Shown: positions 53,033-53,278 of the stretch, piece by piece
Layout of the letters: every line of letters starts with the position of its first letter
How positions within the stretch are numbered: position 1 is the stretch's first letter
DNA from: Peptococcia bacterium
Lineage (GTDB): Bacteria > Bacillota > Peptococcia > DRI-13 > DTU073
Assembly: GCA_050951565.1 (NCBI GenBank)
Contig: JBMNJH010000012.1
Location: 63,141-127,140, forward strand
Reading direction: 5' to 3'
DNA: 64,000 nucleotides
Made by a program: the position numbers and the translations under genes
Notes under the pieces: model-generated
Databases searched by the model: none
The model's input: only the letters and a program-made list of their open reading frames with translations
What the model was told of the DNA's origin: nothing

Positions 53033-53278
53033 ATGGAAGGCATCTTATCTTCGACCATTCTGGCCGTGGGGATTATTCTTGGGTTGACCTTTTTGGGGGC
53101 GGGAATTGGGCTCGGCATTCTGGGTTCCAAGGTGGCCGAGGCCGTAGGCCGCAACCCGGAAACAAAGAGTGATGTGGTGCAATCGGTTATGGTCGTTGCC
53201 GTGGTGTTAATGGTCTTGTTGCTCTTACTCTTTGGTTTTGTGTTTATCTTGCTGTTTTACAACCCACTCTTAGTCTAA
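53033..53278 (+). CDS. F-type ATPase c-subunit-like proteolipid lacking the conserved TM2 carboxylate
   Basis: AGGAGG RBS 6 nt before the ATG. Two TM helices; [22 protein letters not shown] matches the c-subunit loop ([22 protein letters not shown]). The position equivalent to E. coli D61 is Met, with no acidic residue anywhere in TM2. The ORF track merges this with an upstream out-of-frame extension (52685). Confidence 0.75.

Follow-up and report, generated by a model that had tools for sequence, protein, structure and literature searches.

To our knowledge, all known F-, V-, A- and N-type rotary ATPases couple their ring to an ion through a conserved carboxylate. A small gene in a 64,000-nucleotide stretch of the genome of a Peptococcia bacterium (contig JBMNJH010000012.1 of assembly GCA_050951565.1; the whole stretch is here called the window) raises the question of what a c-ring could be for when that carboxylate is missing. 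The gene encodes a c-like proteolipid and lies in a cluster of 11 genes, which includes those for an F1-like ATPase head and for giant surface proteins. A preliminary description of the sequence had proposed that the c-like protein lacks the essential carboxylate, that no a subunit accompanies it, and that the module is a repurposed motor or anchor and not an ATP synthase. Our analyses point to a similar answer: the cluster appears to encode an ion-uncoupled F1-like ATPase that, compared with the mycoplasma examples of such enzymes, has kept a genuine c-ring subunit and a stalk.

The c-like protein and its ion-binding position

The gene and the two sites within or beside it that bear on its interpretation are as follows:

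53033..53278, plus strand: c-like proteolipid gene, with an ATG start and 81 codons plus stop, encoding a two-helix hairpin without a carboxylate in the second transmembrane (TM) helix, TM2
53020..53028, plus strand: ribosome-binding site (RBS) of the c-like gene, AAGGAGGGG; the ATG begins 5 nt downstream, which favours the 81-aa start over the 140-aa and 197-aa starts
53210..53212, plus strand: codon 60 of the c-like gene, ATG, encoding Met in the column of the ion-binding Glu or Asp

Profile searches placed the protein in the c family. It matched Pfam PF00137 (ATP-synt_C) with 36.7 bits against a cut-off of 24, with residues 10–74 covered, and scored under the cut-off of all the NCBIfam subunit-c equivalogs (the best was NF005363, 45.3 versus 71; TIGR01260 gave 30 versus 43.95). 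A phmmer search of all PDB chains matched it to 23 c subunits at E≤0.01, and the top matches were c1 and c2/c3 of Acetobacterium woodii (4bem).

These alignments identified the residue that occupies the ion-binding position. Met60 faced the ion-binding Glu of A. woodii c2/c3 in the phmmer alignment, and a single MAFFT column held Escherichia coli D61, PS3 E56, Ilyobacter tartaricus E65 and Met60 of the window protein. The preliminary description had placed a Met at the Asp61/Glu56 position by eye and had reported that TM2 contains no Asp or Glu; both observations were borne out, as the profile- and structure-based alignments had Met, and no acidic residue, in the ion-binding column. The phmmer alignment to PS3 c was off by one residue, with Val61 facing E56. 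This shift was immaterial because TM2 of the window protein (residues 48–81) contains no Asp or Glu at any position. The positions of further Na+/H+ ligands in I. tartaricus c (Q32, S66, T67 and Y70) were occupied by Leu, Val, Leu and Leu, respectively, in the MAFFT alignment. An acidic residue elsewhere in the membrane part of the protein was considered and rejected, as E2 is N-terminal and E36, E43 and D47 lie in or beside the cytoplasmic loop, as in canonical c subunits. Judged from its sequence, the c-like protein cannot bind H+ or Na+ by the canonical site.

Other parts of the hairpin were strongly conserved. G22, G24, G26 and G28 were invariant in the family alignment, as was the cytoplasmic loop R40-N-P-E-T-K45. 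The c-type hairpin and the GxGxGxG motif described previously were thus both present, with the correction that the motif sits in TM1 and that the loop is formed by RNPETK. GxGxGxG in TM1 is a helix-packing motif, and in F-ATPases the cytoplasmic loop of c contacts gamma/epsilon. Within TM2, the stretch V61–F67 (VLLLLLF), which lies just past the former ion site, was at least 90% conserved, with L66 and F67 invariant, and position 60 itself was variable. The conservation of this hydrophobic belt beside a dead ion site suggests a protein-protein interface on the ring.

The length of the protein also required revision. The earlier figure of 82 aa had counted the stop codon, and the protein has 81 aa. 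Longer upstream starts, namely a 197-aa open reading frame (ORF) from 52685 and a public 140-aa annotation (P0004), were rejected as they overlap the 3' end of the preceding surface-protein gene, g598, out of frame and have no RBS. Because the RBS and all the orthologues, which start with M-E, back the 81-aa form, the 140-aa annotation P0004 is probably a mis-called start.

To follow the loss of the carboxylate across the family, we examined 120 listed proteins among the 1,131 returned by a homologue search with the c-like protein. These were 72–100% identical to it and 80–89 aa in length, save for one mis-started 140-aa entry, and came from Peptococcia, Lachnospiraceae, Oscillospiraceae, Erysipelotrichales and Coriobacteriales. 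Not one of the 120 had an Asp or Glu in TM2, and the former Glu position was occupied by Thr (55), Ala (37), Met (21), Ser (5), Leu (1) or Val (1). A tblastn scan of one genome per GTDB species showed that 324 species representatives encode a relative of the c family; Kineothrix alysoides KNHs209, Hominiventricola filiformis CLA-AA-H276 and JBMNJI01, closely related to the window, are among the carriers of the cluster. Inspection of the best 80 loci together with three others (83 loci of ~20 kb each) again found no Asp or Glu in TM2 in any of them; the Glu column in these loci plus the window held Thr in 40, Ala in 25, Ser in 11, Val in 5 and Met in 3. The loss is therefore conserved in at least 83 genomes and 120 protein clusters, and the residue that stands in place of the carboxylate varies among Thr, Ala, Ser, Met, Val and Leu.

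The ratio of nonsynonymous to synonymous substitution rates (dN/dS) between the c gene and its closest relative (L004) was 0.029 at a dS of 0.78, and by this measure the gene is under strong purifying selection. Sequencing error, chance and gene decay were excluded as causes because the loss was kept in all homologues and loci examined and because of this low dN/dS. The preliminary description had allowed for a sequencing error; the intact RBS, the dN/dS and the family-wide loss indicate selection instead. Copies identical to the window protein were found on 50 contigs (P0001), and one homologue (P0104) was found on at least 1,000. An exhaustive profile search of 1.8 billion cluster representatives returned the carboxylate-less proteins as a compact group, with E values from 1e-31 to about 1e-17 and outliers such as P0230; canonical c subunits bearing the Glu or Asp began near 1e-10, apart from this group.

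The search of cluster representatives also returned multi-hairpin proteins. P0179 (1,139 aa, 14 matched stretches) and P0184 (631 aa, 8 matched stretches) contain tandem c/K-type hairpins in which the Glu is kept in a VVLAEAL motif, and P0165, P0166, P0171 and P0181 have three to five hairpins, some without the carboxylate. These proteins resemble known archaeal K subunits and are unrelated to the carboxylate-less c proteins described here.

The operon around the c-like gene

The order of the 11 genes was g1817, g598, c, p258, alpha, gamma, beta, the epsilon-position gene, tm194, p292 and g1086. Two of these bear on whether the ring has a stator:

53290..54066, plus strand: p258, a b-delta fusion-like peripheral stalk of 258 aa, with a TM segment and long helix, a linker, a helical bundle and a beta C-terminal domain
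57878..58462, plus strand: tm194, a conserved membrane protein of 194 aa with four TM segments (5–6 helices), which follows the epsilon-position gene

Homologue searches yielded 10 proteins for p258 and 7 for tm194, and with so few homologues the alignments used for AlphaFold2 modelling were shallow. The p258 model, with a predicted local distance difference test score (pLDDT) of 76, combined a TM segment and a helix of 70 residues with a linker, a bundle of helices and a small domain of beta structure. Foldseek comparison of this model with the PDB gave about 35 top matches that were all delta/OSCP subunits, including the mycobacterial b-delta fusion (7njk_d and 7jg5_d, probability 0.82–0.87). 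The hidden Markov model (HMM) of the p258 family matched chloroplast b at its N-terminus (E 0.032) and PS3 delta at its C-terminus, where the motif D..ICEG(I/V).(I/V)....LYD(Y/F)S(I/V) aligned with the classic C-terminal motif of delta. Profile matches were weak, with 3 of 10 family members touching Pfam OSCP. From these comparisons p258 appears to be a membrane-anchored, b-delta fusion-like stator stalk, that is, b and delta in one gene. Because p258 is b-delta-like, we read the gene order as the canonical c-b-delta-alpha-gamma-beta-epsilon with b and delta fused and a missing.

The preliminary description had noted the lack of an a-subunit gene, and none could be recognized here. No protein of the operon had a Pfam (PF00119) or NCBIfam match to subunit a, and tblastn with E. 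coli subunit a, whose sequence was confirmed to be exact, found nothing in the 64-kb window or the 83 related loci. The one caveat is tm194. Sequence and HMM searches of Pfam, NCBIfam and the PDB with this protein gave no match, its profile aligned to neither E. coli a nor a three-sequence a alignment in hhalign, and the family alignment contained no conserved membrane Arg. The AlphaFold2 model of tm194 was poor (pLDDT 56.6); it had one long TM helix, a short helix, two medium helices and two of ~30 residues, an arrangement that recalls H1–H6 of subunit a. Subunit a of Bacillus PS3 accounted for four of its seven top Foldseek matches, all of them non-significant (E 1.8–3.3, TM-score 0.38–0.45). 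The conserved polar residues in its helices were D104, N107 and Y148. Based on the model, tm194 might be a degenerate, Arg-less a-like stator, possibly at the position of a, a suggestion to which we give roughly a third of the weight. Whether or not tm194 is a-like, we judge the canonical ion path to be absent. Neither Pfam nor NCBIfam (June 2026) held a family for p258, tm194 or p292.

The ATPase head is encoded by the genes that follow the stalk:

54057..55388, plus strand: alpha-like subunit, 443 aa, PF00006 at 246 bits; its C-terminus is ~65 aa shorter than that of canonical alpha
55385..56176, plus strand: gamma-like subunit, 263 aa, PF00231 at 81.5 bits (cut-off 39.9)
56173..57528, plus strand: beta-like catalytic subunit, 451 aa, PF00006 at 210 bits
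57637..57903, plus strand: epsilon-position protein, ~88 aa, in an ORF open from a TTG at 57562; in size it corresponds to an epsilon beta-sandwich that lacks the C-terminal helices

The sequences of alpha and beta retained the motifs expected of a working ATPase. The Arg finger SVSRLG of alpha was present in 73 of 73 sequences, and in beta the Walker A motif GGAGVGKT was present in 69 of 72 and the catalytic motif G(V/I)GERSREG in 58 of 72. On these grounds the alpha3beta3-gamma head looks catalytically competent. The alpha-like subunit, which is 437–446 aa long in most loci, matched NCBIfam PRK13343 with 427 bits (cut-off 554), residues 6–433 aligning with positions 9–437 of the 507 in the model. 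As this alignment to a canonical model begins at residue 6, the N-terminal stretch of alpha, which binds delta in canonical enzymes, looks to have been retained. The beta-like subunit scored 459.8 against TIGR01039 (atpD), just under the cut-off of 462.85; among PDB chains, it matched canonical beta subunits with ~375–382 bits and the Mycoplasma mobile G1 beta with 312 bits. The epsilon-position protein had no match in the PDB or to epsilon profiles and a weak match to NCBIfam PRK13442 (E 0.11), and its position and size (about 80–100 aa) were kept in 74 loci.

Genes for single-pass or large surface proteins flank the ATPase genes on both sides:

45511..45539, plus strand: promoter-like site TAGACA-17-TATAAT (11/12) upstream of g1817, a consensus match only
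45647..51100, plus strand: g1817, a giant surface protein that has a TM anchor at its N-terminus and carries a juxtamembrane domain, a collagen triple-helix repeat (aa 270–322) and fibronectin type III (FN3)-like repeats
51127..52923, plus strand: g598, a surface protein that crosses the membrane once and has a juxtamembrane domain, a stretch of (Gly-Gly-X)n and, at its C-terminus, an acidic tail
58485..59213, plus strand: p292, a single-pass protein of ~242 aa from the ATG at 58485, in an ORF open from 58335; its ectodomain is akin to the juxtamembrane domains of the giant proteins
59228..62488, plus strand: g1086, a large surface protein that has a signal/anchor at its N-terminus and contains an acidic Pro-rich linker as well as FN3-like repeats (fn3 E 1.7e-4)

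No convincing terminator was found inside 45647–62488. The surface proteins resemble one another close to the membrane: the N-domains of g1817 and g598 matched in hhalign with a probability of 96.8% (E 2.9e-10, 166 columns), and p292 matched g1086, g1817 and g598 with probabilities of 72%, 46% and 41%, respectively. In g1817, Pfam Collagen (34.8 bits) and fn3 (33.4 bits) were identified, and NCBIfam models of collagen-like adhesins matched under their cut-offs. The (Gly-Gly-X)n stretch of g598 (aa ~236–300) fits the Gly-X-Y register of collagen and is followed by a highly acidic, Glu/Pro-rich C-terminal tail; its distance from the membrane anchor is close to that of the GE(T/P)G collagen repeat in g1817. 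Trimeric stalks may be formed by both g1817 and g598.

The order of the 11 genes was kept in most of the 83 loci, across several classes of Bacillota, with Clostridia, Bacilli, Erysipelotrichia and gut Mollicutes-like lineages represented. An orthologue of g1817 was present at the same position in 69 of the 83, g598 was directly upstream of c in nearly all, and g1086 had an orthologue at the same position in most, reaching 3,561 aa in L001. The genes for tm194 and p292 were fused into a single gene encoding 340–405 aa in at least 12 loci (L023, L032, L044, L046, L047, L051–L055, L061 and L064), at about 14.9–16.1 kb in locus coordinates, and because of these fusions in at least 12 genomes we consider that the two proteins act together.

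A more distant cluster with the same plan was found in Listeria monocytogenes by protein search of a plasmid collection (lmo0086–lmo0094; L084, NZ_LR134402.1, 37974–57311). Its layout was a giant protein, a 768-aa protein, an 80-aa c, a 343-aa ‘delta’, alpha, gamma, beta, a 107-aa protein and a 186-aa multi-TM protein. In the Listeria c, the Glu column holds Val and TM2 contains no Asp or Glu, and this protein matched the window family profile with a probability of 97.9% (E 3e-13), whereas canonical c subunits reached only ~4e-8. In addition, the N-domain of lmo0087 was homologous to that of g598 (probability 95%, E 4e-8). Thus a c without the TM2 carboxylate, with a g598-type protein just 5' and stalk-alpha-gamma-beta 3', was shared by the window, the large majority of the 83 loci and Listeria. 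Other parts of the two clusters differed. The Listeria alpha and beta were 53–55% and 43–45% identical to canonical F1 and 42–48% and 35–40% identical to the window family; the Listeria alpha is full length (498 aa), unlike the 443-aa alpha of the window family; and the Listeria stalk, epsilon-position and 4-TM proteins had no profile similarity to p258, the epsilon-position protein or tm194. Because its alpha and beta are nearer to canonical F1, the Listeria cluster would be either a deep, distant relative or a partly parallel derivation.

The Listeria cluster has been named a second ATP synthase or an ‘ATP synthase-like operon’, with no role assigned to it, and coexists with the canonical atp operon, the pair being termed ‘two ATP synthases’ (PMC3091722). 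It is confined to Listeria sensu stricto and is up-regulated in Caco-2 cells, in which an lmo0091 mutant was attenuated 5.7-fold. The literature found on this cluster contained no mention of the missing carboxylate.

What the cluster might do

The conserved loss of the carboxylate, the lack of a recognizable a subunit, the competent-looking head and the synteny with surface-protein genes together make the proposal of a repurposed motor or anchor, and not an ATP synthase, the best-supported reading of this cluster, with function drawn from anatomy and analogy. A motor is favoured over a mere anchor because a b-delta-like stator stalk exists. We give a somewhat better than even chance to the reading that the cluster encodes a rotary ATPase of the F type which no longer couples to ion transport and has been redirected to mechanical work on the surface of the cell. 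In such a machine, ATP hydrolysis would turn gamma-epsilon and the hydrophobic c-ring against a stator composed of the b-delta stalk and tm194-p292. Torque or conformational work would cross the membrane to three or four co-encoded single-pass surface proteins, recipients that have a juxtamembrane domain in common and bear collagen-like and FN3 stalks. What results would be mechanical (the moving, tensioning, remodelling or releasing of surface fibrils) and neither ATP synthesis nor ion pumping, by analogy with the mycoplasma F1-like ATPases of gliding (Type 2) and MIB-MIP (Type 3).

With low confidence, we speculate on a more specific form of this motor, a transmembrane rotary transmission in which an ion-blind c-ring cranks a trimeric collagen-like fibre whose TM anchors sit in or against the ring, with the tm194-p292 pair and the b-delta stalk holding the stator. 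Helices of ATP6AP1/2 or Voa1 are placed in a comparable way, inside V-ATPase rings. Such a transmission would constitute a new, ATP-powered class of surface appendage motors among Gram-positive bacteria, as well as the ancestral form, in free-living organisms, of the motors for mycoplasma gliding and MIB-MIP, and if this were true it would have a representative (lmo0086–0094) in a genetically tractable pathogen, L. monocytogenes.

The cluster was compared with canonical F1Fo, above all the Na+-type enzymes of A. woodii and I. tartaricus. Shared features were the gene order c-b-delta-alpha-gamma-beta-epsilon, with epsilon assigned by position and size, the GxGxGxG motif, R(Q/N)PE loop and C-terminal (A/F)NP(F/L) of c, the catalytic motifs of alpha and beta, and the delta-like fold. 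Unlike the canonical enzymes, the window cluster has no TM2 carboxylate, no ligands of the Q32/S66/T67/Y70 type and no recognizable a subunit; its b and delta are fused (258 aa), its alpha is short and its epsilon-position protein has about 80–90 aa; it scored under the cut-off of the NCBIfam equivalogs; and it adds tm194, p292 and flanking giant surface proteins. The mycobacterial b-delta fusion likewise joins a b-like TM segment and helix to a delta/OSCP domain, but is ~440 aa in length, works beside a second b and belongs to an ion-translocating enzyme, whereas p258 has 258 aa and no second b gene is present. The N-type ATPases are similar in being divergent second F-type operons that coexist with the housekeeping enzyme. 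They keep a, b and c with a full ion site and carry AtpR and AtpQ; in contrast, the window operon contained no ORFs for a, AtpR or AtpQ, and the alt_F1F0 models (TIGR033xx) scored far under cut-off (e.g., c, 18.5 versus 130.85).

The functional analogies drawn here are with mycoplasmas. Their F1-like X0 ATPases, alpha/beta/gamma(/epsilon) enzymes derived from F1, work with large surface proteins; their genes lie next to those for membrane proteins not yet characterised, and a genuine F1Fo is present as well. A 12-TM ‘Protein 1’ and a 2–3-TM ‘Protein 5’ take the place of the Fo subunits (PMC3369863). The Type 2 enzyme (M. mobile G1) drives gliding, and its GliD was hypothesised to be a b-delta fusion that lacks a TM segment, while Gli-alpha lacks the stalk-binding H1 helix (10.1101/2024.06.11.597861). 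The Type 3 enzyme is required for the function of MIB-MIP in antibody cleavage (10.64898/2025.12.04.692339). Clusters of Type 2 and of Type 3 resemble that of the window in combining F1-derived ATPase genes with large surface proteins, and GliD, as hypothesised, and p258 would both be b-delta-like. They differ in gene order and in that the window cluster keeps a c hairpin and a membrane-anchored stalk; besides the c hairpin, its membrane proteins are a stalk with one TM segment, a further protein with four and others with one, with no 12-TM protein, whereas the mycoplasmas have no recognizable c.

Several points weigh against the reading of the cluster as a rotary motor acting on surface proteins. 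Synteny, gene fusions and analogy are the grounds for proposing rotation, a stator role for tm194-p292 and contact of the ATPase with the giant proteins, and the family itself is known from genes and predicted models. The identity of the epsilon-position protein is weak, being based on position and size. A hydrophobic ring would also fit a purely static anchor, and it is only for the Listeria relative that a canonical ATP synthase has been documented alongside the cluster. Finally, by their sequences the window alpha and beta are no closer to the mycoplasma G1 and Type 3 proteins than to canonical F1. All the NCBIfam models for the mycoplasma proteins scored under cut-off (MMOB1660/1670, 381.8 versus 600 and 384.8 versus 850; MSC_0619/0618, 304.1 versus 520 and 402.6 versus 570), and they matched the window alpha and beta no better than did the atpA and atpD models. 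A special affinity of alpha and beta to the mycoplasma G1/Type 3 enzymes or to the Listeria cluster was not seen in scores or identities. As the alpha and beta scores are no closer to the mycoplasma motors, common descent with them is unsupported.

If the cluster is an ion-uncoupled motor of this kind, a large family with ring, shaft, head and stalk but neither ion site nor subunit a would extend the reuse of the rotary engine beyond chemiosmosis and beyond the wall-less mycoplasmas, and its members include abundant human-gut Lachnospiraceae and cultured strains. In evolutionary terms it could plausibly stand between F1Fo and the mycoplasma ‘F1-like X0’ motors, the membrane parts of which remain poorly understood, and it would provide a concrete hypothesis for the ‘second ATP synthase’ of L. 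monocytogenes, an enzyme with an effect on intracellular replication. In databases, thousands of entries that carry the name ‘F0F1 ATP synthase subunit C/alpha/beta’ probably do not belong to ATP synthases, a point of importance when the metabolism of gut anaerobes is reconstructed.

Of the other explanations, the one that survives best, although we consider it unlikely, is a static anchor, in which the carboxylate-less ring docks an F1-like ATPase whose head serves as a conformational switch or scaffold for the surface proteins without sustained rotation. A ring with neither ion site nor a subunit has no built-in stepping mechanism, and the F1-like units of M. mobile G1 are arranged in chains and are not known to rotate any ring (10.1101/2024.06.11.597861), both of which would suit an anchor. 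The conservation of gamma, the epsilon-position protein, the RNPETK loop and the b-delta stalk goes beyond what an anchor needs, however, as does the highly conserved LLLLLF stretch on the outer helix.

The strict synteny with very large secreted or anchored proteins, and the homology of alpha and beta to the ATPases of type III secretion systems and flagellar export, would instead suit an export or assembly engine comparable to FliI/FliJ. Such an engine would drive the giant collagen/FN3 proteins through secretion, membrane insertion or folding, the ring and tm194 serving as part of a conduit or platform. This we regard as distinctly unlikely: all the giant proteins begin with an ordinary Sec-type signal/anchor, alpha and beta score far higher to F1 than to FliI/SctN models, and protein conduction by c-rings is not known.

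It is very unlikely, in our view, that the ring and tm194 move an ion or solute through other residues, such as the conserved Q/H50-S51 or a Thr/Ser at position 60. About half of the family members do have Thr or Ser at position 60, tm194 has the conserved polar residues described above and its weak fold match is to subunit a. Against this, many members have Ala, Met or Val at position 60, which leaves that position without a conserved polar ligand, a conserved membrane Arg is missing from tm194, and known F, V, A and N rings all need the carboxylate.

The loss of a carboxylate from a ring-forming hairpin has precedents in A. woodii c1, in which hairpin 2 has Gln (4bem), and in V-type and archaeal multi-hairpin c/K subunits. 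In these, at least one hairpin per polypeptide or ring keeps the carboxylate, together with an a subunit, whereas the only c gene of the operon has none. That the best PDB match of the c-like protein is the A. woodii c1/c2 ring, with its one Glu-less c1 hairpin, would be in keeping with a hybrid rotor, in which the protein joins the housekeeping c-ring in the manner of c1 and alters the ion/ATP ratio. We find this highly improbable, because the c gene is accompanied by alpha, beta, gamma, stalk and epsilon-position genes of its own cluster and, in the loci examined, was always flanked by surface-protein genes and never by a canonical atp operon. The chance that the missing carboxylate reflects a sequencing error or a decaying pseudogene is practically negligible, as no supporting point was found, the loss occurred in all 203 homologues examined, the RBS is intact, the dN/dS is low, and restoring Glu (ATG60 to GAA or GAG) requires at least two substitutions.

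Genomic setting and flanking sequence

The synteny extended through Peptococcia, Lachnospiraceae, Oscillospiraceae, Erysipelotrichaceae and gut Bacilli/‘Mycoplasma sp. CAG:472’, the Coriobacteriales label also being found among the c-family proteins, and some genomes had two or three copies of the cluster. Two arrangements departed from the common order. L058 and L059 (1–11000) were permuted to beta, epsilon, a tm194-like gene, a giant gene, a g598-like gene, a c-like gene, a p292-like gene and a second giant gene, so that c, in the part of the contig fetched, adjoined surface-protein genes (between g598 and p292) and not stalk or alpha. In L006–L021, L027 and L043, from the gut Bacilli/‘Mycoplasma sp. 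CAG:472’, the order was c, stalk, alpha, beta, epsilon, ~1.5 kb of other sequence and gamma, and tblastn detected no tm194, p292 or g1086. The occurrence of this variant in gut lineages of Mollicutes-like type may be relevant to how the F1-like ATPases of mycoplasmas arose. Full-text searching, the coverage of which left out most subscription journals, found no description of the cluster outside mycoplasmas and Listeria.

Two other settings for the cluster were considered. An anti-phage defence system was rejected on the result of a PADLOC search, which gave no meaningful match and one marginal match of p258 to Cas13a (E 0.0075). A plasmid or mobile origin was also rejected, as the GC content was flat across the window and matches in the plasmid collection were canonical operons or chromosomes. 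The PLSDB entries NZ_CP030101.1, NZ_LR134402.1, NZ_LR214986.1 and NZ_LR214949.1 are chromosomes or large pieces of chromosomes (Listeria, 2.9 Mb and 569 kb; Mycoplasmopsis cynos, 987 kb; Mesomycoplasma hyorhinis, 844 kb), so that matches to them do not imply a plasmid location.

Downstream of g1086, the window continues to position 64000 with a further feature:

62496..63258, plus strand: broken ORFs (81 aa, 168 aa and others) with a Glug motif (E 0.003)

These ORFs are probably the continuation of, or a partner to, a downstream giant surface protein, and they may represent a frameshifted or fragmented giant gene or an assembly error. At the corresponding position downstream of g1086 in L002 there was a giant protein with faint matches to Glug and Peptidase_M26_N.

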